DNA from: Adineta vaga
Taxonomy: Eukaryota; Animalia; Rotifera
Direction: 5' to 3'
Length of the DNA: 64,000 nt
NCBI GenBank assembly: GCA_021613535.1
Contig: CP075493.1
Span: 10,141,179-10,205,178, forward strand
The position numbers were made by a program, and so were the translations under genes. Shown here piece by piece: positions 3,002 to 57,215 of the stretch. Positions within the stretch are counted from its first letter, which is position 1. The number at the start of each line of letters is the position of its first letter. The notes under the pieces are model-generated. The model saw only the letters and a list, made by a program, of their open reading frames with translations. It was not told the origin of the DNA and did no database searches.

Positions 3002-5921
3002 CTAAATTGAATATTCGATAAAACTTAACATACTAGCTGATGCAAACATTCGAGCTAATTCAATAGCTAAACTTTGACAAGTACGTTGTCGATGTCCTTC
3101 ACTATTTTGATCAACAACGACTGCATGTAAATTATAAACTTCGCCATAACTTGTTGCACCTAATGTTGAAAGATAATAATCAATAATATCTTCAGCTGAG
3201 ATGGGTGTTGGATGTATAATCTTCTTGTCGGCTGCATAATCCAATGGAGGAACGGAATATTGAAGTTTAAATTCTGAACCCCAATAAACCTTTTTGTAAA
3301 AATAAAAAAGAATAAGTTAATAAAATAAATTAGTTATTTACAAAATATTTATCGCCATCCAAATCTGAGCCAGCAATTTTATGAAAATCAGGTCCTAACA
3401 GAATTCATCGATTTTAACCAATACAATCAATATATATTTTCTACTTACGATCTCCTTTCGTACTAAAAACAATAATATCATGTAAATCATACAATTCAGG
3501 TCGATCAACTGCATTTAATACCAACATATCACCAGCATACGGGCTGAAAAGAATGTAGCCTTTCATTAGAGTAAAAAGTTTGAAAGAAAATTACCAAGGA
3601 TTTTTTGTCACAATGACTTGTCCTTCTACACATTTATATTGACGATTTGGTAATGATTTACCATTATGATCTAATACTTCGTAACGAATAAAACATGTTC
3701 CTGGTTTTAATATTGTTTCAAATGCACAACCAAACATAAATCGACATTCATTTTCTGGTAAGGGAATTTTATTTTTTAATAAATGTCTAAAGACAAAGCC
3801 ATCAGTATGACATGTATAAGTAATCAGATCTTTACTCGGAATATATATAATTGGATGGAGCGTTCTGAAACCATTGTTCTTGTAGACGAAGAAATGTTTC
3901 ATTTGGAACACCAAGATCTGACATAAGAAGAATGATTTGATTATTTAATCGTGTTGGTGCTAAATAAAAATGAAAAATAAACATATCTTATTTTCGTTGA
4001 AAATGAATAGATTCATCCTACTTGCTACACTATGCTCACAAATCTCTAAAGTCCAGTCGTTACATTCAAATTTTTTCATTGATGGTCGAATTTTAATGTA
4101 AAATTGTTCGTTGGTCGATTGAGGATCAATAATTAGAAGACCTTTACAACCTGCCATTCGAATTTGATAAGCAGATGACATTATCTTTGAAATACAAACA
4201 GAATGCTATACGAATTCATATGATATTCGAACATACTGGAATATTTTCAGTGAAACGCTTGACTAAACCTTTCGAAATAAAGCCATTGCCATCAGTGAAA
4301 CAAAATCCATTTCGTTCGATATCATCGATACATCGAACACATATTTCTCCTTTCAGAACACGTTTGTTAAATTCTTGTTCGGTTTCACAATAAACCAATT
4401 TAATCTACAGATAGTTTTTAAAACTTTTCTTCGATCTTATTATTTTAACTTACGCCCGTTGGAGAACTCTTACTAAACCATAGACCTAATCTTGCAGCAT
4501 ACGTTCCTAGATTGTCAATTTGATTTAATTCACCTAGTTGTGATCGTTTTTGATGGACATCATTCAATGTTGATGTTTTCATAAACCAAAAAACATGTTC
4601 TTTAATCTGTGAATTGGATGATCCAAATAAATGAAAACGATCTCGACCAATTTCAATACCAGCTCGAAATATCTGTCGAAAATTATCAGTATTATTATTG
4701 AGATATTGATTAGGAGGATCAGGTTTTAAGTAAACAAGACAAAAATTATCAGCACCACCAAATGATTCATGACGCATAGCACGATGGCCTATGGTTTCTT
4801 CTTTTGGCATTATACAGAGACGCGTTGGCGTTATATGAACAACACCAACACGAAACAATTTACTTTTGTTCTAAAGCAATAGAAGATTTGATGAAATATC
4901 GATATTTATTATTGATTTACTTTTATTGCGATTTTATTAAATTCATCTCGATTGAATATAGTTGTCAAATCGAACCAATGACATGCTTGAAGTTCACGAA
5001 AAGCTTGTAGTGCTAATTGATAGAAACGTTCTTCATTCTCTTCAGCTAAGTCAACTAGTGTGCTTTGAAGTTGATCATTCATGAGATACTTATCATCAAA
5101 TACATATCCTAATGAATGAAGCATTGCCATAGCATAACTAGTTCCACGAGTTGGATACCAATTAAATTCAATTTTATCCCATAATTTACGTACATTTTGT
5201 TCGATAGATATCTTTGTATACAAGATTTTACACCGATGTACATGTCGCAAATAATTGAGAAACTGATCAGCAACAGATTTAGGAGAAATACGTATAAGAA
5301 TTTCACTACAAAGACTTATTGATTTGATAAGTGGTTGATCACCATATAATCTAAATAGAGAGAGATGAACTGAATGTCTGTTACAAATGTTCAATTAAAA
5401 TACTTTGAACTTTGCATATTATCGATCATTTGTACTTCTTTAATCAACTTATTCATGTTTATTATGATCTCTGCACGAGTATCGTAGTCTATGACGAAGA
5501 TATGTTTCTCAACATGACATATAGATAAAGTGAAACAAATCGTCGTTGTCACAGTATTTTGACATTTTAGCTGCAGTGTATTTTGATCAGAAAGTGTCAT
5601 TGTCCATTGAGGTGCTCCAATGTAGGATATGTCATGAATAAGAAACTTTGACGTTGAGAGTAGAGAGCCGAATGATACACGAATATCTTCGCCAATATTA
5701 GTGTTAAATTGTATAAATTTATGTCTGCGATTGGATGGTAAATTGATTGAAAGCCAAATTTGTGGATTTTGATGAATTAACGAAGAGAATTTCAAATGGA
5801 TGTCATTAGCCTGTGTTATTGAACATGAAAAAGAAATCTCTTTTTTATTCTTAATATATCTTGTAGATAATCCAATAGATGATGAAATTGAATCAACTAC
5901 ATTAGCTGGTACATTATACAA
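3002..5921 (-). CDS. Eukaryotic cellular RNA-dependent RNA polymerase (RdRP, RDR/EGO-1/QDE-1 family); multi-exon, about 850-900 aa.
   Basis: Minus-strand exons contain the diagnostic RdRP block ...GQVIVTKNP(C/W)... followed, after short introns, by PYAGDMLVLNAVDRPELYDLHDIIVFSTKGD and LLGPDFHKIAGSDLDGD (revcomp of about 3370-3420). The catalytic DLDGD motif is present. Flanking exons (4445-4858, 4909-5394, 5391-5921, 3002-3244) are collinear on the same strand. Confidence 0.75.
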
Positions 5922-6826
5922 TATACAATCGATAGAATCTCTAAGTAAAACAAGAAATTAAAATTAAACGACGGAACCAGATTGGATCACCAATCCGCAA
6001 AATCACTTACTTTAATTTACTCATGCTTTGCCCGTCGTAAAAATATTGTGCTCTATGGATGTCAGACAACCATTGTTTCAAAAGCAAAATAGAGAAAGAA
6101 CGAAACTACGTTTGACTTTTACACATGTATTTCTTTCTTTCTTTCCCTCACTTGTTGAGTTTCTTGATAAAAGAAAAATATTCAACGATAATGATTGCAC
6201 AATCACTGGGAAATACTCAATAAATTCTTTGTTACAACTTTGCTAGTATTTAAAGAGTATCCATTACAACTCAATTGGTATCTGAAACATTCGGTCAGTT
6301 AGTATACACTACATGAATCACTTTTACAATCTCAAATCATAAAATTTATTTAACTTTTCAAATAACAGGTAAACTTTTGTTCATCCAATAGATATGTGTA
6401 TTTTTTTTCTCATATAAATAAGTAAAATAAATCAAAGAACAAGCACAACTCAATAGAATATGAATATAACATAGATAATAAAGAAGAAACAACAACAGAA
6501 AAAAAAATACAAAAAAAAAGAAGTTAATTTTCTAATGATCATGATAACAATGATAGTATTCAAAACATTTGCATAAAATTCAAAATAAATCTAAAGTATG
6601 ATTTTGTTCTTTTCGAAAATGTTCTCTTTGTTCACAAATAATGTATAGAGATTTCAATGTTCGACTAGGAAATTCTGTTAGAATAATAAATGATTAAAAG
6701 ATATATGGAATGAAATTCGTAGCACACAGAAAATATGTTTAAAATGCAATAGAGAAGTAAAAAATGAAACAGAGAGTACACGAGTATCGAATGTGTGACT
6801 AAAAATTAAATCATTTCAATAAAATG

Positions 6827-23732: not shown

Positions 23733-25676
23733 TAATTCAATGATTTTTCACTACACTTCAACAAAAATATTTTAGTTTATTTTTAATTTGTATTTATCAA
23801 TTCTGGTGACATACAAAAGCACAACATATTAACGGTCGGAGATCGATTTAATATATAATTTGTTTTTGATTTTCTCATTTTTCTTTCGTTTCTATCTACC
23901 GTTCATTTCTTTGCTAACCCTCTACACAATTCTCTAATTTCAACAATCATAATCAAACAAACGAATATTAACAAGGTTGATCTGTTGAATTTCTCTCTCT
24001 CTTTCTCTCTCGTCTTTTTTTTGTAATAACTTTGAATGATAAAAATAAGAACACATATATCAACTATTCATATACACATACATACTTAAATAAATATCCC
24101 AGTAAAATACCCACAGATGAACAGTTGTTGAAAATATTTGAATCAAACTACTAGATATCATTAAAGAAATTATTGATGAGACTGTGTAATTAATCGAAAG
24201 AATATGGTGTCAAATGCACACAAGAATATCATAGAATCGATCGATACCGCACCGATTAACACGGATGATTGATTTTGACTTATAAAAAACAAATCTATCA
24301 TTTATTTACAAAAATTATTTTGTTTTCATTGATGAGAACCCTTTGCTAATAATTAGAGAAAATAAACTCTAAAAAAGACGCGACTCACTACATATGACCT
24401 ACCAAATAATCATATGAGTAAAGCAGTTCTTATACGTCCGTAAACGGTCATGTACGACTATGCTGTTTTTTACCTGGAAACATCAAGTGTTTCAAAACTG
24501 CATTGTTTATTTTAGAAAATAAGGTTAGAAAAGAAGATCTAGAAAGATTACGATTGAAAAAACAACTGAACTGAATTATATTTTATACTTCTTTCAAAAT
24601 AGTGACTTTTTGCGATCATACTGATGAAGATGATATATGCACTGAGCTATCAATGCAAGAATCTCTGCTTTTTGTTCATCATTTATCACAAGTACAGTTT
24701 GATATTGTCCATTGTCAAACATATAGTTTGCTTCTTGCAAGGCTATTTATGTTACGAAAATAAAATCGAAACAGAAGAAAATTTCACGAAGATGTCGAAC
24801 TAAACCTAAGATCAAGTTCAACGCAAGCAATATATCTCAACATCAACAAGGTTCACCATGGAATTCAAAAACATATTGTACATGTGCACTTTGCTTTCGA
24901 CAGCAAAATATATTAAAAGGTATAAAATCGAAAATATTGATTAAAAAACATTCCTATTATTTCTTAGAGATATGTTTGATTTAAATACAATATATTTATT
25001 ACTTTCAAACATGTCGAATCAAAGTGTACGCTCTCGTATTCTGAGTCAATTGTAAAGTAGCGTGTATTATTTATGATGTGTACATCTGCCATAGCAAACA
25101 GTGTATTTCAATATTCTTTGTTAAAGTAAAAAATTTCATAGAGTGATGACTCATCATCTGTCTTATATTGAATGATTAATATAAAACATTTTCCATCAAT
25201 CAAAAAGTAAACCAATAATTTTTAATTTCTTAAAATAAAATTTTCTTCGACCTTTGTACTAAAGAAATGATTTGATTTTCTATCTGACGGTGATGTCGCT
25301 AGTGTCGTTTTAGAAAAAACACAAAGACCTCTACACATAATGAATGTCAATGTAGATCATTATGGCTGTTGATCCTCAACATTTTGTAAATGTAAAATGT
25401 GGATAATGAAGTTGGATCAGCTGGAATTTCTTTTGTCAAAAGTTCGTCAATTACAAATATTGTTTATTCTCTTTAGATTCTCTGGTCAAGCCTAACCAAA
25501 AAACTAAAAACACTATTTTATTATCTTATTCATATTTTGCAATTGAATTATTCAATTAAGATCGACACTTTGTCATTAATTTTTATTATTAGTTTTTTTC
25601 ATTTCTCTGCATTTTAATTTATTCAAATCTCTAAACGTTAATATTCAAAATACATTCTTTTGTTTCTTCGAATCAA

Positions 25677-26790
25677 ATGGCAGCCGGCACACATATGGCT
25701 GCAACACAACAAGCAGCTGATGATCAAGCATCATCACTTTATTTTTCTGGTATATGTCAAACAATATCAGTTAAATGTCAACATCGAAATGAAAATGGTT
25801 TACTAACATGTTCAAGAAATCTTTATGTGTCGTGTAGGCTTTTCTCTTTGGTTTTATTCATTTTCATTTAATTCGATTCAAATTTTAGGTCCACATTGTC
25901 ATTTACTACTTTGTATTGATCATATTCATGAACATGAAAATTTACTACGATATGAAATTGAACAATTAATCAATGGTATAATGATACAAATAATATTTTC
26001 TAATGTTGACGTATTGTTTTTTTCTCTTTATGAATAGAAACTAACATTGTGAAAGCAAATATTCGTGCATTATTAACAACTTCTCAGCAGCAACCATCAT
26101 CAACTACTGCACAAGTTCTTGATGAAAAACAACGTACACTATGTGAATTACTTGAACGATGGGCTACTGTTGGAAAAATTTCTATGTCACAAGCAGCACT
26201 TATTCAACACCAATGTGGTTATATTAGTCAAACTACTCAACAACAAGCAGCTGCAGCAGCAGCATCAACTGCAGCCGCTGCTGCTGCTGCACTTGCTGTT
26301 GGAACAACAAATCATCATGTTGCTCATCATGCAGTAACTGCACAACAAAATGGTACTGGTACGACGAATTCAAATAAACTTCCATCACATCATCAACAGC
26401 ATCATACAAATAGTGCACAAGGAAATCATCATCAAACTAATTCACATCATCACGATCGATCCTCACAGCAATTAGCAGTGAATGTAGTTAAAAAAAGACG
26501 AAGTGGGAAGAATAAAATTGTTACACTATTGATGAAAAATGCTGAAGGAGAATATGAATGTGTATGTATCTTAAATTTCCTATGAATCGAATATTTCTTG
26601 CTACTCATTTCTTAACTCAGAGATCGTTTTCTATCTGTCTAGTCGAAGAAGGAAAATTTGTTTTGCATTAAACCATAGTGTTTTGTATATTTGCGTCAAT
26701 AATTAAAAATCCTTTTTTTTTCTTTCTTTTAGCCAAATATTCAATGTCGGAAGTCTCTCAAATGTCAAGGAATCACGGCACATGTTAAAG
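25677..26790 (+). CDS. Gln/Ala/His-rich low-complexity nuclear-type protein, unknown family; about 4 exons.
   Basis: ATG 25677. Exons 25870-25990 (GPHCHLLLCIDHIHEHENLLRYEIEQLINGI) and 26049-26570 carry poly-Ala/poly-Gln/His tracts from GCA/GCT/CAA/CAT runs. The terminal exon 26740-26790 is PNIQCRKSLKCQGITAHVKACAVDWLKENGQYLNLN*. Confidence 0.35.
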
Positions 26791-27675: not shown

Positions 27676-30600
27676 ATGTCTCCATTAAGTGGCAAGACAT
27701 TTGTACTTGAGCTTGGTCGAGAAATTCGTTTTAAAGCTAAACAAGAACTAATTAACTATTTACGTGAACAAAATGCGCAGATTTCATATATATTAACTGC
27801 TAGCGTAGGTTTTTCTCTCTCGACATATCTGAATCATTATCGATTGAAACTTATTTTTACTCTAGACGGATTATGTTTTGGTTTCGAATGATATTGATAC
27901 ATATAAAACTCGTCGAGCAAAACAACTCGGCATACCATTGGTTAATGTTGATTATATTCATGAATGTCGTAAATCAGAAGTTGGAAAAGAACCATCTGAT
28001 ATTAAACGATTTATTGTGACATCAGCAGAAGATAAAGAAAACTTCTCAAAAACTGGTACTATACCAGTTTCAGGTTAATATACGAAGGTTTCTTTAGAAA
28101 ACTTATATTAATACTTCTTCTTCTTTTGCATAGGAGGAGGAAGTTCGTCAGGTAGTGTAATAAAACCTGTTAAATATGATGTATCAAAAATCAAAATATG
28201 GAATTCTGATGATGTGGAATTACCATGTTTCGATGAAATTACACATGCTGAAATTGGCAAATGGGCAATCTTCAAAGTAAAAATCTTGAGATAATCAATT
28301 GACTCTATTCATTTTCTTGCCGTTTTCAATAGGAAACAAACGATCATTCAGATATTCATTTTGCGCTTGAATTACAAATCATTTCCGAAGAATATTATCA
28401 TCAACAAACAAATAATGATTATCAATTTCGATTTCGTTATGAAAAACAAACAATTATCAGTTCGAAAGGTAAAACTTCATTAATTCAATATGCCTTCAGT
28501 CATGATATTAATGAATTACATCAATTATTTGCATCGTACTATTATCGTATTGCAACAATGCCAAGAATAACTCGAATTCGAGAATTATTACCCGATAAAT
28601 TAGGTTCCAAATTATTATTACGTGTAAGTTACTTTTCTTTCTTTTGCCATAGAAAAATATATTCTTCAATTTTAGTCATTATTTCTTCATCGAATTGATA
28701 CACAAATGCTCGATGATAATGTTTGTCAATTGATTGAATCACTTTGGATTGAATCGATTGGAGATTTAAATAAGATTCTTTCTGTTCAACCTGAATCGAT
28801 TGCATTGAAAACAGTATGACAATAGAAAAACAAATGTATTTGAATGTTTATTGTTTTTTTTTCTCAAATATTCTTTTAGATTATCGAGGCTGAAGCTGCT
28901 TTACTTGAAATCAAATCTGGTGGTGAATCAGCATCGGAAGCAGAAACTCGTTTCTATTCACTGATTCCTCATCAATATTCATATCTTATCGATCTTATAA
29001 CAAATCGACGTGCCTTAATAGATAAAATTGATTTATGTCAGGTATATCTTCTTTGCTTGTTGATCATTTCATTGGCTAAATTTTCAAAATTTAGATGTTA
29101 CGTGATATGCTTACGATCAATGAATTAACGAATTGGAATATTAAAGCATCAATTGAAGCAAAATATCGAGCATTAAAATGTCATATTGAAAGTATCGATA
29201 GAGATAGCCATGAATACTCGACCATTAATAATATGATTCATTCATCAACAGATTCGTACGTATTTTTGAATGATTAGAACTCTTTTGAAAAGTATTTGAG
29301 ATTCTTATAGGAATGAAAAAGTCATTGTTCATCACATCTATAGTGTTGCAAAACAAATAGATGCATTGAATTTTCGCTCAACACTTTTTAATCAGAAACA
29401 ACTTTTTCATGGATCGAAATATAATAATTTTCTTGGTATTCTCTCACGGTAAATCAATTTAATAAAAGTTCTTTCCAAACATTCATATTTTTTTTCTTGT
29501 TATTTAGTGGTTTAATGCTACCAAAACTAGTTGTAGATGATCTAGGAGTGGCACGTACTGATTTTGGATGTTTGGGATATGGAATTTACTTTTCGGATTC
29601 TGTTTCAACATCTTTAAAATATACAACATCAAGTACAACTTGCCCTGGTCGACGCCTATTATGTATATCTCAAGTAGCATTAGGAGAATCAGCAAAATAT
29701 TATTCATATGCAACGAATTTAACTCAACCACCAGAAAATTGCCATAGTACACATGGAGTAAAGAAGACCAATGAAAATAATTCGAAATTTTTCGTAAGAA
29801 ATTTCCTAGTTTTTATTTCGATAAATTGAAATTATTTAGGATGATGAATATGTAATCTATAATCTTGATCAACAACGTTTACTCTACATTGTTGAAGTTT
29901 CATGGCAACCACATGATGTTATTGATCAACCATTGAAACTATTACCAATTATTCGTGATCATTCAACAAAACAGTTAACGAGTTCGAAAAACGAAAGTAA
30001 TTGCAAAATTTTACAATTCACTCTTCATTAATATAAATCTTTAACTGCATTTTTAGTGGATATACCATCATCTATCGAAGATGAAGTAATTCAAGTAGCA
30101 GAACAGGATTATGGTTTAGTTTGTCCATCATCAGGTCAATTAGTGCCATTGAAAGCATTTCATATTCGCGCTCAACTTGTTGATGTAACTGGTGAAGTAT
30201 GTTTAATTACATTGCTCCTTCTTTCAATCAATATTATCTATAAATATTTGTTAGGTAGTACTTTATCAAGTATATCATAATACAAGTTCAGTTCCAATCG
30301 AAGCTAAATATGTGTTTCCATTGGAAGAAAATTGTTCTGTGTGTGGTTTCGAAGCTCATATAAACAATAAAGTTATTAAGGGTGTTGTAAAAGAAAAAGA
30401 ACAAGCGAAACGTGAATATCGTGAAGCAATCGAAAAAGGTCATGGTGCATATTTAATGCATCAAGAACAACCTGAAGTTTTCAGTGTATCTGTCGGTAAT
30501 TTACCAGCAAATTGTGAAGTGATTATCAAGATTACTTATGTTGCAGAATTATCAATTGAAAATAATGATATTATCTTTCGTTTTCCAGCAAAAGTAGCTT

Positions 30601-32560
30601 CATGGCAATCGAAACAAGCTTTAGAAGCAAAAGATCAAACAATTCTTCCATCGATTAATCTTGAACAAGATAATTCGTCAATGAAATCCGTTGAATTTAG
30701 TTTGAAAACATCTATTCGTATGCCATACGAAATTAGTAAATTATTCTCTCCGACGCATCGTCTTCGACGGAAAGTAACCGATTGTTTAGCCATGATTGAA
30801 CTCGTTGATAATGTTCTATTAGAAAAAGATTTTATTCTTTCTATAACATTAAAAAGTATAAATTTACCACGAATGTTAAATGAAACATATGTTGTCTCGG
30901 ATGAAAACAATAATATCGAATTAAATGATGAACAATCTCAAGCATGTATGTTAACATTTTATCCGAAATTTGAAATGACAAATAATATCAATGAATTTGT
31001 GGAAGTCGTTTTTATTATTGATGTATCAAATTCAATGGATGGTAATCATGTTCAACAAGCAAAACAATTAGCACATTTATTTTTAACAAATATGAACAAT
31101 AATGATGGAAATATTTATTTTAATATTGTTACCTTTGGATCAGGTAAGATCGGATGAAGTGAGTTTGATTAATTTTCTTTTCGTTCTTTTAGATAATGAT
31201 GAATGTTTTCCTATCTCATCACCAAATACAAAAGAAAATATTGATAAAGCAAAGCATTTCATTTTGGTTTGTATTATCCTATCAGTTCTTTTGTTCTTGA
31301 AGAAAATCTTCTCTTTTGTAAATTATAGCATTCACTTGATCATCGTGGTAATACTGATCTTTTCTCTGTTCTTCGTCAATATTCTCTCCTTCCATCTCCA
31401 TGTAAACTTGGTCGACAATTTATTCTTCTTTCTGATGGACATATCAATGATTTGAATTCAATTATAACTTTACTAGAAAATCAACCATCTATGGCACATG
31501 ATCGATTCTTTACATGTTCAATTAGTGATACATCAAATAAACATCAATTAAAACAATTAACTAATGGAGCACATGGTGGCGGTTTAGCAACTGTATTTGA
31601 TTCAAACTATCGTTCAAAATGGAAATCGAAAGTTCTTCTCATTCTTGAACATATTCGTCAACCATGTGTAACAAATATATCAATTGATTGGCATGGAAAT
31701 CTTGATAATCAACAAGTTAAATTTACCAATCAAGCACCAAAAATGATTCGATCCTTATTTAATGGTATGCGTTTAACTGTCTATCGATTTATTCAAAATT
31801 GTCATAAAGCAACATTGACAGCAATGATTAATGATCAAGAATTTGTTACAACTGTATTCAGTAATAAAATGACAGAAACACGAGGAACAATTTTACATTG
31901 TTTAACGGCACGTGCAATTATTCATGATTATGAAAATGGTATATTGCATGTAGATGAAAGTGAAAATGAACTGATGAAAAAACAATATAAACAAGATTTA
32001 ATTGACTTGAGTATAAAATATTCTGTTGTAAGTTCATTTACAAGCTTTGTGGCTATTGAAGAACGTGATGGACAAGCACTTGAGCCAGGTAGAGTTTTAA
32101 TTTCAGATTAAAATAAGATTGAAAAACTTTTCTTTCTTTTTCTTTTCTTTTCTTTTCTTTTCTTTATTAGGTGTTCGCTTACTGGATGTGATGCTTGAAC
32201 ATGATATTGATTTATTGCCATATATTGGTTGGGATGGTGATCGATCACAGATTCAAATAATTAAAGAAAAATTACTGGATGCAAAACATTTATTTGATAG
32301 TGCATCGATATCAAATAAGATTCAACTAACAACTGAATATGAAAAACTTTGTCAAAATATATCTTATCGTTCTGGTGGCGATGCAAAATATGATTTAATG
32401 TTGGCAATTATTGAAACGTACAGAACGATGCTAAAAGAAAATAATAAAGCATTAGAATTAGAAGAAAAAATGCAGCTTGGTAAAATTGAATTGTTTTTTA
32501 TTATGTATTTAGTCGAATTGATTTTGTATTCATAGAACTATTGACTGAAATAACAAATGC
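27676..32560 (+). CDS. Vault poly(ADP-ribose) polymerase (PARP4/vPARP)-like gene: BRCT - PARP catalytic - VIT - vWA; 15 exons or more.
   Basis: Exons 27676-28078: BRCT-like (GKTFVLELG...; ...GIPLVNVDYIHEC). Exons 29300-29830: PARP catalytic core with the H-Y-E triad (LFHGSKYNNFLGILSRG; GYGIYFSDSVSTSLKY; DDEYVIYNLDQQRLLYIVEV). Exon 30312-30600: VIT domain (KGVVKEKEQAKREYREAIEKGHGAYLMHQEQPEVFSVSVGNLPANCEVIIKITYVAEL). Exons 30990-31700: vWA (EVVFIIDVSNSMDG...IVTFGSG...QFILLSDGHINDLN). This domain order is specific to PARP4 among PARPs. Confidence 0.75.
32140..32166. repeat. (CTTTT)n pentanucleotide microsatellite inside a PARP4-like intron
   Basis: cttttcttttcttttcttttctttt read directly. Confidence 0.85.
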
Positions 32561-32945: not shown

Positions 32946-35900
32946 ATGGTGGATTGCGATATAGACTATCCTCTTGATTTTGAAGTTTCCTCTACAGCTT
33001 CTAAGCCAGCTATGAATCCATATAAATCAAAAGGCACAGCCATTGCTTTAAGTTCGTCTCATGATGAATCTGAAGGATCTGATGATATGGGTTTTGGCTT
33101 ATTTGATGACGGCGTACCTGCATCATATTCACCAGTTGTATCGAACAAATTGCGCTCATCAATGATAGACGATAAGAAAGATACAGAAAAAATTGCGGCG
33201 GCTGCAAAGATACCTCAAATGCTCGAAACTATGAGAGAATACGAAGATGATGAAGACGAAGCGGACGATTTTGGTTTTGATTTGTTTGGCGATTATTCTT
33301 CGTCATCACCAGCTGCTACAGTGAATCTTATAGAAAAAGAGGAACATAGTAAACGAAGCACGAGTTTAGCGAAAAGACAATCACCACCAAACGTACAAGT
33401 AACTCCCATCAGAGATTTACTTGAAGAAACTAAAGATCTTCTTAAATCTAATTTAAATAAGATTTTAGATAGAAGTAAGTATACTTTGAAACACATTTTT
33501 CTTTATTTATATTTGTAAATTTATTATTATATTCAATAATAGGTGACATGCTTTCTTCTCTGTCCATAAACGATGAACGAGCCAGTCCAAAGAAACGCAA
33601 GGAAGTATCAAAAAAGGAATCTAAACCAGTACCTTCTGATTCAGCTGTTTTTTCAAACTTGTCACATACATCCCATACGTCTCAAATACCAACAACACAA
33701 AGCTTCAGTTTTTCTAATCTACATTCACAACCACAACAGCAGCAGCAGCAACATCTGAAACAGCAAGAATCTTCGATAGATGGTGATAAGTGCCTCATAA
33801 CGCCGGCATTGTTTGATTTTACAGGCAGCAGTCTTTCGGCGAACAGTGCAGATTTCATATCTGCAACGGCATCCGCACCCTCATTTTCATTTTCGAACAC
33901 TGCGTTCAACAACTATTATCAGAGTGATGTATTGCCAGACTTTGGTATTTCAACTCTGCCTCACCCTAGCATGCCATCCTTTACGTTTGGTGCGCCTCAA
34001 TTTAACAACAATACGTGCAGTGATCCATTCTCTACATCGGCTGGCACTCTTTCGGCAAGTACAAATATGGGCTTTAATACTGGACCACCACCACCACCTC
34101 CTCCTATGGCTGCTGGATTTTTTGGTAGCACACCACCTAGTTCCAATTCTTTGTTTCAACCAACCACTGCTAGTGGCATGTCATACAATCCTCTGTTGCC
34201 AGATGCGATGCTTCAACAAGTACTGCTACCAGCACAACCTCCTCCTCCTATGGCTGCTGGTTTCTTTGGCAGTACTATGTCGCCAGGTGCGGTTTTTCAA
34301 CAACTACCACTACCACCACCACCACCACCTCCTCCTCCTATGGCTGCTGGTTTCTTTGGCAGCACTACATCTAGTTCCAATTCTTTTTATCAACCAACTA
34401 TTGCTACTGGCATGTCATATAGTCATATGCCACCAGGTGCTATGCCTCAACAAGTACTACTACCACCACCACCACCACCACCTCTTCCTGCTCCTCCACG
34501 ACTTCAATCAATAAAAACAATAGCAAATGAATCGGGTTTCAAAATGTCATTAGCTGATGACGAGGAATCATCTCCGATGTATTCTGCGTTACAGCATAAA
34601 CAACGCTCGAGCATGGTGTCACGAGATAGAGGTCGTGGAGTAGTTTTCGGAGGAAGATGCGCAACTGATGGAGCTGAAGTATTAAGTGGGAAAAAATCAG
34701 AGATCATTAAAGAAATATCTGTAAATGATTGTGCTCGATATTGTGACGTATGTGTAGACAAAATAACATTTAAATCTTATACAAAATACTTTTCTTATTG
34801 TAGACACGTTCCGACGAAGCCTCTAATGCACCAGTAAAATCTGCAACATCAGACTATACAGAAGACTACAATATATTTAGTAAAAAGAAATCGAGTTCCA
34901 AACGGTACGAATTTTAGAAAGACAAAATACCATTCATGTTCACTAAAATGGAGCTATTAAATTTATTTTAGTGCACCCGAGAAGAAACCAGTGACCAAAT
35001 ATGTTGACGATTGTCTGTACGATCTTTTACTACTTGATGTTACACCACTTGGTTTAGGTATTGAAGATGTGAATGGTGAAATGTGTACAATTATTGAACG
35101 CAATCGTACAATTCCAACGAAATCAAACGTTTATTCTATATTTACCAATGCTTATGCTTATCAGACAACAGCTACTATACGTATTTTTCATGGTCAACAT
35201 AAATTAACAAAATATAATGTTAGTAAAATACTTACACAATTGAAATCGAATTGAAATAATTTTATTTTGTTTTAGATATTTCTTGGTGAACTTATTCTTA
35301 AAGATTTAACACCAAATTTTGCTTCACAAACATTACAAATATCAATTGTTATGGATGTTGCTAATAGTTTCCTACAAGTCAATGCGGAAGAACCACGATC
35401 AGGAGCTAAAGCTATGATTAAAATTAGTGCATCAGATTGTAAGAATCCATTAACCAATATGTATTCAAAATAAATCGTATGTATTTAAATTTATTATAGA
35501 TTCACTTAGTGCAACCGAAATTGAACGACATATTACATATGTCGAAAGTGATCCTAACTATAGAGCTGTAGATTTTAACGATGCACAAAAAAATAATCGT
35601 CAATACAAGGTCGGTACCAGCTTTCAGAAAACAAATTCATTCTAAATCTCGATTATTTTAGTTGAAAGGTGATACAGAAAGTACGGCCATTCGTTTTACA
35701 GGTAATATAGAAAGTTCGAACGATGTTTTCAATTTTGATCGACCAAAAACTATTCAATTAATTTCAACAACTCTAAATGAAATTAAAAAAATACAATTAC
35801 CAAATGGATCGTTCGATATCAATGAAGATTTTACTAAATTATTTTCAATTCCGATGAAAAATTTTGATGAACTTAAAAAATACTTATGTTCACAAGGTTT

Positions 35901-48660: not shown

Positions 48661-51600
48661 TTACGTGGATGAATCTTGAGTACTAATTACATTTAACAAA
48701 GTAAGTGGTAAGTCATGTAAAGTAAGTTTATTATCAATTACAACATCGATAGTACCTGTTAAAGATAAAGGAATCTTGCCAGCTAATAGAGGTGTTAGAA
48801 GAGACACCATTGTTGCTAATTTTGCTGTAATTTTAACATCAATGTACTCTGTTAAAACTTCGGCAAAAGGACCAATATCGATACGCTGATTATCAGTAAC
48901 AGTGCCAACTTGTTTATCTTCGTTTAATTCAGCACCATAATCTGCTCTGACATTAATTCGTGTCACAGCTAATGTTGAACTAAATGGGTTTTTCAATACA
49001 AGACGTGTCGAAAGTGTTTTGACAGTACCAAGTGGAATACCAAGTATTTGTAAAGCGCTTAGTTTTTTCAAAAGAACTTCTCGAACAAGTGTTCTGTCAC
49101 CATAAAGGCCAGGAGCTGTTGCCTGAATCTGTAAACCAGCAATAGCTGTCGATAATAGAGGAACATTTGTTCCTACTGAATTATTTGGTAATATTCCATG
49201 TAATTCTACATCATTATCTATTCCACATATCATACGAGAAATAAATTGTCGAGCTACATCAGTATTTTTAGGTGTGATAGTAAATGTTCCTGTTGCATTT
49301 AATATTGTACTATTCCCTTTAGGATCAAGATAAAATGGATCGATAATAACTAAACCAAGAGAAGTTCCACTAGTTTTATCACGTAAGTCAAGCGAAAGAC
49401 GACCACCATCAAGAATATTAACAACCGATGGATTAGTCATTTTTGTTGTTATATGAAGTGCTAGTTCATTGGACGAGATTGCTCCTGTTAGATCAATCTC
49501 ATCAATATGTAAAAGTCCATTAGCAAATCGATCATAACCCGTCAAAATAAGAGTATCACTTACTGGAATATCCGTTAAAGTAATATTACCAATTCGAACT
49601 TCTGCTAATGCTGTAGCTAAACCATTAATTGTTACTGATACACTTTTTTTCAAAACAAGATCAGCAGCAAATGCTTGAAATGATGTTCTATCTAATACAA
49701 TAAGTTCTTGTTTAAAAAAATTCATCGAAAGCTCATTAGTTGTTTGATTATGTTGAACAGGCAAATCATGAAGTATCATTTGACCCATATTAGGTCCATT
49801 ATTAAAACGCATCATATAATCAATACTTGTTGTTAAGGCTTTGAATGTCATGTGAACATTTGATGGTAATTCAAATAAAACAGATAATTCACCTGTCACA
49901 TAAACTCTACTAACGTTTGCTCGATCAAATTCAATACCAAAATCTAATACTTCAACTCGACGAATTAATTGTGTTTGTATGCCATCAAGATCTGCTTCTA
50001 TAGAAAGACCACTGATCGTTAAATCCATACCAGTAGGATTTTCACTTGTAGATAAATCATGAAACAAGGTTACTGATTGTATTTGATTATTGAGATATGC
50101 AGAAAAAAAATTACCAACAACAGGTAAATCACTTTCTTCTCTTGGAACAAGTAGACTAAAACGAAGAATAATTATAATCAAATAAAAATATTCATTGGTA
50201 ATTATACAAACCCGTAAAGCATCATATTATTACTGCCTGGTGTCAGAGCTAGGATATCAATTGGTACATGACCAATAACTGTTCCAGTATCAGTATCAGC
50301 CATTAAAAGTTCAAATTTTTCCAGTCGAACATCAGTCACACCAGAATTTCCAATCGTTACATTGATAGAAATTCGAAGAGCATTATTAGTTTCTCCGTCG
50401 ACTGTGATGGCATGCACACGCACATCACTAAGACCTTCAAGACCAACTAACGAAACATCATTCGAAATAGAAATACCATTACTATTCAAAGCACCAAGAG
50501 CGAATGAACCAGTAATAGATGCGATGCCAACAACACGAAAATGAATCTGATCAGTTTTATTTGCATTGATGAAATTTTGAGCAAACTTCTCATAAGCTTT
50601 TCCCGTACCACTAATTAATAAATATCTGTCATTGAATGCTGATTCAAATGTAATACTATCTATTTGTTTTACTGCTGCTTCAGAAACATTTAACATGCCA
50701 ACAGGATTATTATCATAATAAAGAAAAACACCCATGTCCATTGTTTGAATTTGAAGTGGAGATTGTTGGCCAAGAGGTGAATTGATTTTAAAAGTAATCG
50801 ATGCTGATAATTTGACTTTCTTTTCAGTTGCTGATGGAATAAGTGACATCGAATTGAATATCAATGAAGGAATTAATTGCTCATCAAAAGTTGGCATTGG
50901 AACAATCAATGAGAGACCTTTCATACCATTGGCAAGTAAAGAATACGAAGTAGCATTTGGTCCAGCTACTGCACCGACTCGACTCGTTTTACCTATGAGA
51001 AAATTTTCGATAACATCAGAAAGAGCTTTATATGCTTCAGGAGATTTTGATTGTAATTCACCAGAAAACGGTACCGCATTTGCACCAGAATGTAAAGTTA
51101 TATTACTATCAATCGAATTAACATAACCAATCGTTTGATCATTATAACGTAAAGAAAAGTGTAATGCACCTATACGAAAAGAAAATGAGGTTAGAGAAAC
51201 AAATTAGCGAAAGATTTCTTTTACCAAGATCAATGTTAAATATTGATGGATTACCAATTTCGATAATAATATCCACAAAAATATGTTTTGCAGTCGATCG
51301 ACGAAGATCAACTGTTTTAATACTTACATTTTGAAGACCATTTAAAGCATTGAGTGTTACTTTTTTATTAAATGGAATATTCGAATAAGTAGGCATTACG
51401 GTCGATATCGGTTGAATCGATGCTTTTGCTGTTAAATGCCATACAACACTGGATTCAAATATAAGCGAACGAGTGAAATTATTAAAAGCTCCAAGATTAG
51501 ATACAACAAATGGCGAATCAATGGGAATGATAGTCGGTTGATCACCATCTCCAGTAATCTTGATCGATTGTTCATTTCTTACAACTCCAACATCATCAAC

Positions 51601-52152
51601 ATTGATGATAAGTGGTGAAAGAATTGTTGCTGGAATTGATCCAGTACGAGATAATTCTAATTCAGCTCGTAGACGAAAACTATCATTTTTAATATCTTCA
51701 ATATTAATCGATCGAAAAGATAATTCAGTTTTTTCAATCGTTGAACGAACAATCGCTGGAACAATAACATAGAGTACAATTATAATGCTAAGAAGAATTA
51801 TAAGTAAAGCAATAGCAATACATAAAAGAATAAATAATTTTCGACGCATTTGAAAACCTTCAAAACGACCACACATTGTACAAAGTGTTACTTTTTTCGA
51901 TGATGATTTTATCGGTCTATCCAGCCAATCTATTTCGTCGTCTTCATTAGATGATGATACTAATTCTTGTTTGTCATTAGATGTCTTCAAATTAGTTTTT
52001 ACATAATCCTCGGCAAAGTCTCCAGTAAAATCACCAGCATTGCTACTAGATGTTTTAATGTAAGCTACAGACTGATCTGAAGAATCAGATTTTTTTTTAC
52101 CCATTGATAAATTTATATCTGAAACGAAAGAAATAGTAGAGAATATTTTCAT
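48661..52152 (-). CDS. Very large (about 1,100 aa) single-pass type-II membrane protein built of repeated beta-rich modules; family uncertain (LEA_2 / DUF3712-like architecture).
   Basis: Three collinear exons (51142-52152, 50202-50924, 48661-50181) separated by about 20-220 bp introns. N-terminal cytosolic region, one TM (LFILLCIAIALLIILLSIIIVLYVIVPAIV), then reiterated about 100-aa segments ending in patterns like ...N.S.F.I.L.......G... (e.g. ...IEIGNPSIFNIDLG; ...ISINVTIGNSGVTDVRLEKFEL; ...ITTKMTNPSVVNILDGGRLSLDL). Confidence 0.45.
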
Positions 52153-53791
52153 TAATTAAGCTCTAAATCCAGAAATTGTTTATCGTATGAAATGTATAGT
52201 TTTATAAAAGCCGACAAAGTGTAAAAGAGCAATCTCTTTTCCTCATAATAATATTTAAAATTGTTTTTATTTTATACGCAGTTTTACAGTTATCTGTTTT
52301 AGTTTCTCGTCAGTTCGTTTTCAATCTGCTTCCTAAAGAATCTGCGAATATTGATAACTTTGTTTTTTTTGCCTTGTCTTTATCAACTGTAGATAAAGAA
52401 TAGATGAATTTCATTGATGAAGATGTCGTTACATTTTGAAAAATATTTTAAATGTAAGTGTAGTATTGATATTCGTTTGTTCGTTCGTACTTATATTTAA
52501 AGTTTGCGGACTTATATTTCAGGTATCAACAGAGCACGCCGTAAGTTTTCATTGGCTCCTCTAAATATATTTACATGAATATATACAACAGATTTTTCTT
52601 AGACCATCAATCAGATGACATAGAAATCGAGTAAACCGATAAGGAATACAAAAATGCTTTTAATCAATCGCCAAAAATAATACTTTAATCTCTATATTTG
52701 TATTTTCATCACTTGTAAAGATATACAGGATAAAATGATCACTCCTGAATTATTTTCATTATGTTTCAATCGAAAAAGGTCATACTATCTTCTCAGTAGG
52801 ATCATTCGATTCCCAGATAGAATATCTAACGAAATATCATATATCTAAGCTTGTTTTCTTTCAAACGTAATAAATCTATTAATAATGTCATCTGGTAGCA
52901 TGATATACATTCCATCGAGTAATAAGTTATGAAAATCATGCTAGATTAACGAATGCATCTGGAGATTATGTATATCAAAAAATGGGTGACATATTATGTT
53001 GATCTCATCAGAATTAAAAAGCATCAGTCATTTTATTAAAAATGTTCGATGATTACAAGATGCGTACTTATTATTCATTCCTGTATATCATCATTTTCTT
53101 TCCCGGTTTTGCAGTATAGAAATATTTTTCTCGATATTTTCGAAGAATATATTGGACATCATGTTCACAATACGTCGAATAATTAAACCTCAATACTAAT
53201 CGATGCTTCCTTTTTTATGTATACAAATGTATGCATGCATGTTTGCATAGAGTTTTTCAGTGCACGTTCATCAGCTAAAGACCAAAATGAATAAGAACTA
53301 TCAGTTTTGTACACATCTCTCATGATAGCTTACCACCTAGCGTATGTCGATGTACGAGTTGATATTCTTTCTCACTAATCTGCGTTTTATCTCGTTCTTT
53401 GGAGTGTATCTGCTTATTATTATTATGTTTTTTCACGTGTTTTTGATAAGCCACACCCATATAGTGCCATATATTTCACTCAATAGACATCTCATGTAAA
53501 TAAATTATATTTTTCGACAAATTTTTTAGTTGCATTTTTCTGAATTTTGTTTTTTGGTTGCACTTGAAATTTAAACGTCCTCTCAACATCGTTGACTATT
53601 TCATATTTTTTTCTTTCACAACTACGACTACTTATTTATAGTAACAGCAAAAGAAAGAAGCGGAACGGCAAGAAAAGAAAAGCAACACACTCCAAATAAA
53701 CATATACACTCTAAGCACATGATAGTTATATAACGCAGCATAACAAAATAAATTCATAAGCATTAGTGCAAAGTTATTTTATTAAAATAAT

Positions 53792-55100
53792 ATGTCGCAG
53801 GTATGTAGAATTCAATATATTTGATTACTTATTTTTCATAATATCTTTAGTCAGATAACTTCTCAACGCGTGTTGGTCGAATGCGATGTGGAAGAAAAAA
53901 ACGAAGAAAAGAAGAAGATAAATGCTTGGTATGTGGCGATTCGTCGATAGGAATCAATTTTGGTGTTCATACCTGTTCACCTTGTAAAGCATTTTTTCGT
54001 CGAAATGCTATTAAACTTGGTGTATGTTTTTTTATTTTCTTTCTCTTGTAAAATATATCCGTTGATACTTTATTTCTTTAGACATTCGAATTCATTTGCT
54101 CAAAAAATGGAGATTGTTCGATAACAAGTGATACACGTCGATTGTGCAATTGTTGTCGCTTAGCTAAATGTTTTCGCATGGGTATGGATCGAAATTATAT
54201 TCGTACAGAAGATGAAAAATTGCAAAGAAACCAATTAATTGCATACAATAGACAAAAACGTGCTGAAAACAAAGAAATTGTATGTAATTTTGTTTATTCG
54301 TCTATACTGATGTGATTGTACGTATTCATATTTAGATTAAACCAGTAAATCTATTAAGATATTCGCATGAAAATTATTCATATCTATCAACAAATGATCA
54401 AACATTATTAACAAATATTCTTCGTGCATATGATGAAAGTTGTAATACATTGAGATATGATGAACTTTTAAAGATGCCCAATGATGAAACTTTATCATTA
54501 CAAAGATTTATGAATGGCATGTCACATGTATATCTTGCCTTAGTTAATTATCTTCGACAAGTACCTCAGTTTACTAATTTACCAATCGAAACAAAGATAG
54601 CTTTGTTAAAAAGCAATCTAAATCAAATCATTCGTTTAAATAGTGCATTAATTATACAAGCTACAGGTGCTGTTGAAGATGTTAGTACTGTTGCATTTAA
54701 ACGTGTCTTTCCGGATGATCTATATTCTGAATTATGTAAATGTGTTGCAGGTATTTTTCCATTTGTTTATGATCCAATATTTCTTAAATTAATATTTGTC
54801 GTATTAACTTTTTTGCCCAGTTTAAGTATTCGTTTCGATCTTAATCAAACACTAATACATCCCGAAAATACTTTTACAATTCAGAACATCTATATAGAAT
54901 TACTATGGCGTTATATTTTATATCGTTGTTCATCGTACCGACAAAGTGTTCAACTTCTAACAACATTTATTACTCGACTTCTTCATTCACAGATAGTTAG
55001 TGAAAAACTGAGCGGATTTATTAGTAAAATATCACCAAATCAAGGCAATCAATTAGAACCAATTATGAGAGCAATGTGGCTTGATGAAAAGAATAAATAA
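53792..55100 (+). CDS. Nuclear hormone receptor (C4 zinc-finger DBD + ligand-binding domain); 4 exons.
   Basis: Exon 1 is MSQ (gtatgt donor at 53801). Exon 2 is ...[43 protein letters not shown] (first zinc finger, C-x2-C-x13-C-x2-C). Exon 3 is [41 protein letters not shown] (second finger). Exon 4 (54300-55100) is an LBD with an AF-2-like end ...[15 protein letters not shown]. Confidence 0.75.
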
Positions 55101-56487: not shown

Positions 56488-57008
56488 TTACCCTGTTGAT
56501 TGTTGTTCACGTGTATTTTTATTTGCATTTAAAATTTTGGAAACTTCTGGACTTTTTTTTACATAATTCGTATAAACATAATAAGAACCAATAACAAGTA
56601 CAATTCCGAGACCAATCGTACCCCACGGAGTTGATGATTTACCCACTGGTGGTCTAGAAAGAAACGATTTGATTTTAATTCCGAACGAATGAGAGATATT
56701 TTATGTAATGAAATTCGATCATTCTCGTTAACTGTTTTTCCTTTTGAAAAACCAGAAGCATAAACTCACGTCTGAGATGATCCACCAGTAGGTTTTGATT
56801 TTGTCGGATCTGTAGACGTTGTTCGTTGTTCAGCATCTCGCATAGCCATATCTGTGCCATCAGCTGATCTTGATGCTTGAGAAAGATTTGCTGATGCACC
56901 TGAAGATTGAACTTTTGTACCACCACCGGATGTATTAGTTGTACTTGCTGCGCGACAAATATAAGCAGCTCGTGATATAATAACTTGTGACTGACGGCAA
57001 AGACTCAT
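56488..57008 (-). CDS. Small single-TM protein; 2 exons, about 135 aa, hypothetical.
   Basis: Exon 1 is MSLCRQSQVIISRAAYICRAASTTNTSGGG...KPTGGSSQ (gtgagt donor). Exon 2 is TPPVGKSSTPWGTIGLGIVLVIGSYYVYTNYVKKSPEVSKILNANKNTREQQSTG*. The N-terminus looks like a mitochondrial presequence (R/S/A-rich). Confidence 0.35.
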
Positions 57009-57215
57009 TATTTGAAAATACGTATATATCTATAATAAACAATAATAAATCATAGATATATTTAATTAATATCAAGAGAAAAAAAAACGAGTACGAATCT
57101 GAAGAGAAACACATTGAATACATAGAAGTTTGCTCAGTTAAGTGGAAAGACATATAGCTGAATATTATCAACCAGTAATTATATATGAAGAGATTTTGTC
57201 CTGAGTATTCTTGTT

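Follow-up and report, generated by a model that had tools for sequence, protein, structure and literature searches.

The 64,000-nucleotide stretch of Adineta vaga DNA analysed here (the window) carries on its minus strand a spliced gene for a cellular RNA-dependent RNA polymerase (RdRP), running from an ATG at 6024 to the end of a stop codon at 2533. The initial annotation had placed such a gene at 3002-5921: it does lie there, with its frame uninterrupted, but its true span is wider. The model has 13 exons and 12 introns of 47-104 nt, all GT-AG (24 canonical splice sites), and the 2799 nt coding sequence translates to 932 amino acids with no internal stop. At ~30% GC, ~8% of random codons would be stops, giving a chance of ~1e-34 for 932 open codons over 13 exons; the frame is therefore not a chance one. 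Intron positions and phases agree with those of an independently annotated ortholog from the bdelloid Rotaria, described below.

The first exon (6011-6024; all exon coordinates are on the minus strand) is only 14 nt long, ATG AGT AAA TTA AA; its Rotaria equivalent has 8 nt and the same phase 2. Exon 2 (5404-5940) encodes an N-terminal region, and exon 3 (4921-5350, 430 nt) a conserved region predicted to be all-helical (YAMAMLHSLGYVFDDKYL...). The match to the Pfam RdRP family (PF05183) begins in exon 4 (4454-4870), at residue 340 or about nt 4834. After it come exon 5 (4237-4404) and exon 6 (4022-4184, 163 nt), the latter of which carries the conserved SAYQIRMAGCKG motif. Exon 7 (3836-3959, 124 nt) is followed by exon 8 (3595-3786, 192 nt), ending ...VIVTKNP plus TG; exon 9 (3449-3543, 95 nt), reading C-PYAGDMLVLNAVDRPELYDLHDIIVFSTKGD; exon 10 (3342-3394, 53 nt), the catalytic-loop exon, reading RPDFHKIAGSDLDGDKYF; and exon 11 (3034-3289, 256 nt). 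Exons 3 and 6 through 11 are the seven that are equal in length in Rotaria. The RdRP core ends in exon 12 (2670-2929), where the alignment to Arabidopsis RDR2 stops near residues 868-872, about nt 2763.

The catalytic peptides quoted in the initial annotation (...VTKNPC, PYAGDMLVLNAVDRPELYDLHDIIVFSTKGDR, PDFHKIAGSDLDGD, and KYF...) are all recovered in the spliced frame. The cysteine bracketed there as VTKNP(C) is correct, and is assembled from the TG of exon 8 and the C of exon 9. The peptide PDFHK is also genuine, but the LLG placed before it was translated from the 3' end of intron 9; the real junction reads ...KGDR-PDFHK. Once exact junctions were defined, neither a frameshift nor a stop was found in the catalytic exons. 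The model is at its least certain in exon 13 (2533-2622), a predicted Ser/Thr/Lys-rich tail with the stop codon: the last intron (2669-2623) and this Ser/Lys-rich exon (2622-2533) had no support among the homologs compared, and both are missing from the Rotaria ortholog. Without the last splice the protein would stop at 2631 (...SSLVCEYLIFVYIIS).

The gene is flanked by animal-type genes, for a GalNAc-transferase and, downstream, a rhodopsin-type G protein-coupled receptor (GPCR), and its GC content resembles that of its surroundings. Exons of neighbor genes match A. vaga I4U23_003255 and I4U23_003277 at 100% identity. A search of the window found no second RdRP copy. A protein database search did not return the product of this locus, and two of its single-exon ORFs had no exact record in a protein look-up; this copy seems to be absent from the publicly available A. 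vaga proteins.

By profile match and motif content, the protein is a eukaryotic cellular RdRP with all core motifs intact. The spliced translation matches PF05183 with E = 5e-103 and 346.2 bits, the gathering cut-off being 23.8. The intact DLDGD active site that had been proposed is present, with all three aspartates of the metal-binding triad kept (GAT TTG GAT GGC GAT, 3365-3351, minus strand). The best solved-structure match is to Arabidopsis RDR2 (PDB 7eu0, 7roz; E = 1e-45), with DLDGD aligned on DLDGD, and this loop falls in the same column across 40 aligned RdRPs. The three core motifs, QIRxAGCKG, TKNPCPYAGD, and SDLDGD, are all kept, as in 39 of the 40; they include the family motifs Q-I/F-R-x-x-G-x-K-G (SAYQIRMAGCKG) and K/R-N/S-P-x-x-x-x-G-D (VTKNPCPYAGD), present and aligned. 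The intact site makes catalysis plausible, and by analogy with its family the protein would take the catalytic-core fold of the solved RdRP structures.

The DLDGD loop is the alpha-type variant, and similarity is greater to RDR2 (1e-45) than to Neurospora QDE-1 (5e-16). The plant RDR1/2/6 alpha subfamily shares this loop and the QIRxxGxKG and KNPC...GD motifs, and its chemistry is presumed to be alike. Identity to RDR2 is only about 29%, however; the plant accessory domains PF26252, PF24823, PF26250, and PF26253 were not detected in the A. vaga copy, and the plant loop reads HPGD where the A. vaga loop reads YAGD. RDR2 is coupled to Pol IV, which animals do not have. The animal alpha-type RdRPs (Ostrea, Saccoglossus, Anneissia, Branchiostoma, Centruroides), with which the nematode enzymes EGO-1 and RRF-1 belong, have the top non-bdelloid scores against the bdelloid clade profile (300-355 bits) and the same motifs, but identity is again about 29-30%, and at both termini they carry longer, different extensions. 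Among the best profile matches, those from animals are named "RNA-dependent RNA polymerase 1" or "6-like", and that from Ephedra is named RDR2. QDE-1, with its DYDGD-type loop, is a member of another subfamily. It is in the same superfamily, with an aspartate-triad loop (PDB 2j7n), but is a far weaker match, limited to about 65 aligned residues around that loop.

The N-terminal 340 residues have no Pfam match even at E<=10. The structure prediction for exon 2 is poor (pLDDT 53), confidence being moderate (pLDDT about 68-84) in just the first ~55 residues; these are predicted as beta-alpha-beta-beta-alpha-beta, an order of elements also seen in ferredoxin-like, RRM, or KH-type domains. The exon 3 prediction is all-helical, at pLDDT 73. 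Foldseek searches of the PDB with the exon 2 and exon 3 models gave no significant match (best E = 0.075 and 2.8).

By protein search, the nearest relatives are found only in bdelloids, at 49-60% identity, and all matches above 36% are from Rotaria, Adineta, or Didymodactylos. In an exhaustive search with a profile built from 12 bdelloid homologs, scores were at least 400 bits inside the bdelloid clade, falling to 355 bits outside. The suggestion that the gene would serve as a taxonomic marker is borne out to this extent: its close relatives are only bdelloid rotifers, and the window is from A. vaga. The kind of gene was already known here and is largely expected, since 51 RdRP-domain proteins have been published for A. 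vaga (Nowell 2021, PMC7943196), within the bdelloid RdRP expansion (RDR I and RDR II) to which this clade belongs.

Among the A. vaga proteins, I4U23_017674 (P0005, 1268 aa) has about 51% identity to the new protein over all 932 residues. It is one of several long bdelloid RdRPs (P0002-P0007) that fall in the same bdelloid-only clade (100% bootstrap) and share the N-terminal region and motifs. The long forms also carry a conserved C-terminal domain of ~350 aa, with no significant Pfam match, which the short copy in the window lacks; no remnant of it was found downstream, and a search of the whole window gave only noise (E of at least 0.3). I4U23_017674 stands two locus tags away from I4U23_017676, a paralog of the adjacent GPCR gene at 65% identity, and is on that account a probable homoeolog. 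The locus is probably a nuclear, intron-containing, alpha-type cellular RdRP gene of a bdelloid-only clade, the short copy of a likely homoeolog pair whose partner is on another chromosome.

A syntenic ortholog is found in Rotaria sp. Silwood2 (P0001, 910 aa; CAJNVN010000046.1 and CAJOBM010001520.1), at 60% identity. It has the same upstream genes in the same orientation (MOZART1-domain gene, GalNAc-transferase, RdRP), identical intron phases, and the same short form, without the C-terminal domain. There are differences: one intron is 925 nt in Rotaria and 52 nt in A. vaga, and the downstream neighbor is a WD40 gene rather than the GPCR. Another is in the catalytic loop, which reads SSLGGD in both Rotaria assemblies where A. 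vaga has SDLDGD. The Rotaria ortholog is therefore without two of the three catalytic aspartates, and the orthologous lineage can apparently dispense with catalysis. A protein search found no short-form ortholog in A. ricciae or A. steineri.

Between Adineta and Rotaria, amino-acid identity is 60% for the RdRP and about 77% for a neighbor gene. By the Nei-Gojobori method, pN for the RdRP is 0.22 and pS 0.45 (omega about 0.4), and omega is about 0.3-0.4 for the RdRP and both neighbors (0.33 for the GalNAc-transferase). These values are crude, synonymous sites being AT-biased and near or probably at saturation, and serve only to reject neutrality; a single estimate covers both the A. vaga and the Rotaria branch. 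Evolution of the RdRP has been non-neutral.

If the A. vaga copy functions as its family does, the three DLDGD aspartates would hold catalytic Mg2+, and the enzyme would synthesize complementary RNA on single-stranded RNA templates. The product could be double-stranded RNA, as a Dicer substrate, or short secondary small RNAs loading onto Argonautes; according to a published hypothesis, bdelloid RdRPs would in this way amplify the silencing of transposons and foreign genes in A. vaga. Bdelloids are ancient asexuals, and their unusually large RdRP and Argonaute sets lead the candidate explanations of how transposons and foreign DNA might be controlled without sex or ping-pong. The piRNAs of A. 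vaga have no ping-pong signature, for which RdRPs have been proposed to compensate (Nowell 2021, PMC7943196), and this makes an RdRP-based amplifier attractive. The siRNA-amplification capability read from the gene in the initial annotation is what family membership would suggest, although among animal RdRPs secondary siRNA synthesis has been demonstrated only for the nematode enzymes (Pinzon et al., 2019, PMC6396948).

The enzyme could conceivably be active outside small-RNA amplification, for example in some other RNA-templated synthesis. Amphioxus RdRPs have intact sites, and a role unrelated to RNAi has been speculated for them (Pinzon et al., 2019, PMC6396948), so that an intact site does not by itself place an animal RdRP in RNAi; the dozens of bdelloid paralogs (PMC7943196) also leave room for new functions. 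RNAi amplification is nevertheless the sole established function of the family (PMC6396948), and the absence of ping-pong in A. vaga again speaks for an amplifier. We consider a role of this other kind unlikely.

It is somewhat harder still to see the short copy as a redundant homoeolog drifting toward loss of function, or as a protein already non-catalytic, with DLDGD merely not yet eroded. Some of the observations above would fit: the Rotaria ortholog has lost its aspartates with the frame still open, the C-terminal domain is missing, and the protein search returned neither a product of the locus nor a short ortholog from A. ricciae or A. steineri. In the NJ tree, Adineta and Rotaria are also farther apart in the short pair, at a distance of about 0.48, than in the long forms, where it is about 0.28. 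Measured from the duplication node, however, the short A. vaga copy (about 0.26) and its long partner (about 0.28) have diverged alike; the 932 codons are open, the 24 splice sites canonical, and every core motif intact; and pN is half of pS, with omega, by the same crude method, near that of the GalNAc-transferase.

A tentative reading, which we put forward as a possibility well short of even odds, is that the short copy may be a homoeolog between two fates. After the bdelloid genome duplication the partner would have kept or gained the ~350-aa domain, while the short copy stayed catalytically equipped in A. vaga and became catalytically dead, with its frame open, in Rotaria. If so, there may be a conserved non-catalytic scaffold role for RdRPs, or a lineage-specific specialization, in the bdelloid silencing machinery. 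No new kind of system is involved. What is new is the resolved gene model of one A. vaga copy, a probable homoeolog pair in which one member has an entire domain more than the other, and the loss of catalytic aspartates in the Rotaria ortholog; the A. vaga/Rotaria pair is a handy natural experiment on which bdelloid RdRPs still polymerize RNA.

The initial annotation also raised horizontal acquisition of the gene, which our results do not support. In its remaining form the proposal would be that the bdelloid clade came from a non-animal donor, ahead of bdelloid diversification, with introns gained later. Plants and fungi did top the non-bdelloid matches in a first word-indexed search, but when ranked by the profile search, the top seven named matches outside the bdelloids come from animals (oyster, acorn worm, crinoid (two), sponge, scallop, and brittle star), as are nine of the top 10. 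An NJ tree sets the bdelloid clades next to animal RdRPs, and plant RdRPs in a separate clade with 100% support. Within the bdelloids, the A. vaga copy and its Rotaria ortholog group at 89%, and these with the long forms at 100%, as does the bdelloid clade itself. The placement beside animals is weakly supported, with 44-56% at the deep nodes of a sample that has no nematode sequences, and a position inside the alpha clade would be tentative in this tree, which is without labelled beta and gamma references. The 12 spliceosomal introns at conserved positions, the animal neighbors, the synteny between Adineta and Rotaria, and bdelloid-wide conservation extending to an outgroup copy in Didymodactylos also argue against horizontal transfer, and for metazoan alpha and gamma RdRPs generally vertical descent with many losses has been argued (Pinzon et al., 2019, PMC6396948). 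A non-animal donor is improbable on this evidence; the data modestly favor an animal over a horizontal origin for the clade, a question left open by the 2021 survey.

A viral RdRP insertion or contaminant can be dismissed, the match being to the cellular family PF05183 and to no viral RdRP family, the gene being spliced, of local composition, syntenic with Rotaria, and set among neighbors identical to A. vaga proteins, and viral RdRP domains not having been found in bdelloid proteomes (Nowell et al., PMC7943196). Elsewhere in the window, the tandem-Tudor gene reported at 57216-59822 is also present, matching PF00567 in two stretches (E = 9e-25).

Between 6100 and 2450 on the minus strand, placing introns by their GT...AG ends gives an RdRP gene of 13 exons and 12 introns, with its ATG at 6024 and a stop codon ending at 2533 (exons at 6024–6011, 5940–5404, 5350–4921, 4870–4454, 4404–4237, 4184–4022, 3959–3836, 3786–3595, 3543–3449, 3394–3342, 3289–3034, 2929–2670, and 2622–2533). 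The introns are 47–104 nt long, with GC contents of 12–34%, mostly below that of the coding sequence (33%); GC is ~30% across the entire window, which, AT-rich and with very short introns, looks eukaryote-like. The 932-aa product is free of stops and frameshifts. Every RdRP peptide listed in the initial annotation is found in this spliced protein, and the Cys of TKNPC is split by the exon 8/9 junction, as had been guessed; the “LLG” read ahead of PDFHK proved to be intron read-through, the true junction being KGDR–PDFHK. A gene is present at 3002–5921, where it had been placed, but this range leaves out mini-exon 1 as well as exons 12 and 13. No second RdRP gene was found, leaving one within the 64 kb.

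The protein's sole Pfam match is to PF05183 (RNA dependent RNA polymerase; E = 5e-103), scoring 346 bits where the cut-off is 23.8. Failure to match this family and stops in the catalytic exons were the two outcomes named beforehand as counting against a cellular RdRP gene with an intact DLDGD site; neither was found, and the claim therefore stands. That the locus is a genuine member of the RdRP family is close to certain. Its best solved-structure matches are to Arabidopsis RDR2 (7eu0, 7roz; 1e-45), whose DLDGD aligns with that of the window protein; Neurospora QDE-1 is a much weaker match (5e-16). When it is aligned with RdRPs of bdelloid, other animal, plant, fungal, and protist origin (41 sequences in all), the window protein proves to have all three hallmark motifs: SAYQIRMAGCKG, VTKNPCPYAGD, and SDLDGD. 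The enzyme is probably catalytically competent.

Residues 1–340 have no Pfam match, and the AlphaFold models for their two coding exons range from weak to moderate in quality. The opening ~55 residues are modeled in beta-alpha-beta-beta-alpha-beta order, an RRM or ferredoxin-like topology (pLDDT ~68–84), and the second exon as helical; neither model has a significant match among solved structures. The N terminus may form an RNA-binding module like that of plant RDRs.

By protein database search, the closest relatives are all from bdelloid rotifers (Rotaria and Adineta, 49–60% identity), followed by plant and fungal RdRPs at 26–30%. Two other exons in the window, described at the close of this account, are 100% identical to A. 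vaga proteins, which identifies the DNA as A. vaga, in a chromosome-scale assembly. No product of the locus itself was found in a database containing the flanking A. vaga proteins, and the locus is suspected to be unannotated in this species. The best match is a 910-aa protein from Rotaria sp. Silwood2 (60% identity). Exact mapping onto its contig shows that eleven introns agree in position and phase (2,2,0,0,0,1,2,2,1,0,1) between the two genes and that seven exons are equal in length, which independently supports the splice model and demonstrates orthology. A MOZART1-domain gene, a GalNAc-transferase, and the RdRP share order and orientation in both species. Outside this block synteny has been broken by a rearrangement, since the gene directly upstream of it in Rotaria (contig L001:1–1400) matches window positions 25271–26611, ~13 kb further off and on the opposite strand relative to the Rotaria arrangement. 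The downstream neighbor of the RdRP also differs: a GPCR in the window, a WD40 gene in Rotaria.

The Rotaria ortholog has lost two of the three catalytic aspartates, reading SSLGGD instead of SDLDGD (KIGRSSLGGDKYF over the catalytic-loop region, against KIAGSDLDGDKYF in the window protein). Two Rotaria sp. Silwood2 assemblies agree on the DNA (AGA TCA AGT TTA GGT GGT GAT; L001:13577–13597 and L002:12564–12584), and in each the 910-codon frame stays open and every intron position is kept. No other sequence in the 41-RdRP alignment has both of these leading aspartates substituted. Evidently this lineage can survive without the catalytic triad, which the A. vaga copy retains. Divergence rates point the same way: the Adineta–Rotaria distance in a neighbor-joining tree (700 columns, 200 bootstraps) is ~0.48 for this short pair, against ~0.28 for the long forms described below. 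Amino acid identity between the genera is ~60% for the RdRP and ~77% for the adjacent GalNAc-transferase. By a crude method pooling both branches, pN is 0.22 and pS 0.45 (omega ~0.4, similar to the 0.33 and 0.29 of neighboring genes); with pN half of pS, evolution has been non-neutral overall, the Adineta and Rotaria branches taken together.

Six longer bdelloid RdRPs (1268–1317 aa), including A. vaga I4U23_017674, align across the full 932 aa at ~51% identity, and carry a conserved C-terminal domain of ~350 aa, missing from both the window protein and the Rotaria ortholog. Pfam gives no significant match for this domain, and a search downstream of the window gene found no trace of a remnant. 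Two locus tags from I4U23_017674, on another chromosome, is I4U23_017676, a paralog of the window GPCR (65% identity), mirroring the RdRP–GPCR adjacency in the window. Such mirrored pairs are expected for homoeologous segments of a degenerate tetraploid genome; given this nearby GPCR paralog, the short and long RdRP genes look like homoeologs of the ancient bdelloid tetraploidy. The tree agrees: the window protein pairs with the Rotaria ortholog (89%), and the pair joins the long forms (100%); the whole bdelloid clade has 100% support, with a Didymodactylos copy lying outside it (100%).

A search of 1.84 billion representatives with a profile built from 12 members of the clade yielded 5400 RdRP-family proteins. 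Fragments of the same clade score at least 400 bits; scores then drop to 355 and tail off gradually. Among named non-bdelloid matches, the top seven are all from animals (Ostrea, Saccoglossus, two from Anneissia, Oscarella, Argopecten, and Amphiura), with plants (Ephedra RDR2, Adiantum, Xanthoceras), one amoebozoan, and one microsporidian interleaved lower down. Two proteins from other bdelloid RdRP lineages (P0056, Didymodactylos; P0061, Rotaria sp. Silwood2) reach only ~296–298 bits, and are outscored by mollusc and echinoderm RdRPs as well as that of an acorn worm (332–355 bits for oyster, acorn worm, and crinoid); some bdelloid RdRP lineages are therefore as distant from each other as from those of other animals. 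In the tree, the bdelloid groups lie beside animal RdRPs, and plants form a separate clade (100%). Horizontal acquisition, raised in the initial annotation, is unsupported: the gene has 12 conserved introns and ordinary animal neighbors, although the nodes joining bdelloid and animal groups have only 44–56% support. Pinzon et al. (2019, PMC6396948) argue that the alpha and gamma RdRPs of animals were inherited vertically and lost many times.

Bdelloid genomes average 38.9 RdRP-domain proteins, whereas the figure is 2.5 for monogononts and 0.65 for reference eukaryotes; A. vaga has 51, bdelloid-specific clades RDR I and RDR II have been described, and RdRPs have been proposed to amplify small RNAs in A. 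vaga, which lacks ping-pong (Nowell et al., 2021, PMC7943196). A 2025 study likewise reported A. vaga piRNAs without a ping-pong signature, a lack that may be offset by the multiple Rdrp copies. Genes of this kind, their occurrence in A. vaga, and their presumed role are thus already published, as are the expansion to which the window gene belongs and the genome itself. The homoeolog relation and the aspartate loss in Rotaria were not found in the literature consulted; these are the only new points, and mildly so.

By analogy with its family, the DLDGD aspartates would bind Mg2+ in the catalytic core, and the enzyme would make complementary RNA on single-stranded templates, yielding either dsRNA as input for Dicer or short secondary RNAs to be loaded onto Argonautes; this copy may conceivably amplify silencing of transposons or foreign genes. 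A small-RNA function is a reasonable expectation for a family member, with the chances of a part in amplification about even. Amphioxus RdRPs with intact sites, for which a role outside RNAi has been speculated (Pinzon et al., 2019), and the dead Rotaria ortholog both counsel caution.

The Tudor gene noted earlier is real (56500–59822, minus strand): its concatenated large exons match PF00567 (E = 9e-25) in two separate stretches. Tudor proteins often partner Piwi/piRNA machinery; this gene is 50 kb from the RdRP, and nothing connects the two. A gene at 48661–52155 (minus) has unusually long exons (stretches of 337, 333, and 521 aa) and matches to DUF3712 (PF12505) and LEA_2 (PF03168). Because DUF3712 is mostly fungal, this could be a horizontally acquired, desiccation-related gene of a type common in bdelloids. 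A long exon at 33548–34837 (plus), whose exact ORF is absent from the gene index, encodes a protein of low complexity in which PPPPPP-MAAGFFGST units recur and Gln/Ser-rich stretches are present. Ordinary animal genes include a VIT and von Willebrand A protein (30255–32108, plus), a nuclear hormone receptor ligand-binding domain (54336–55097, plus), a WDSUB1-like WD40 and U-box gene (62070–63206, minus; exon 100% identical to A. vaga I4U23_003277), and the rhodopsin-family GPCR directly downstream of the RdRP (680–1670, minus; exon 680–1534 100% identical to A. vaga I4U23_003255).
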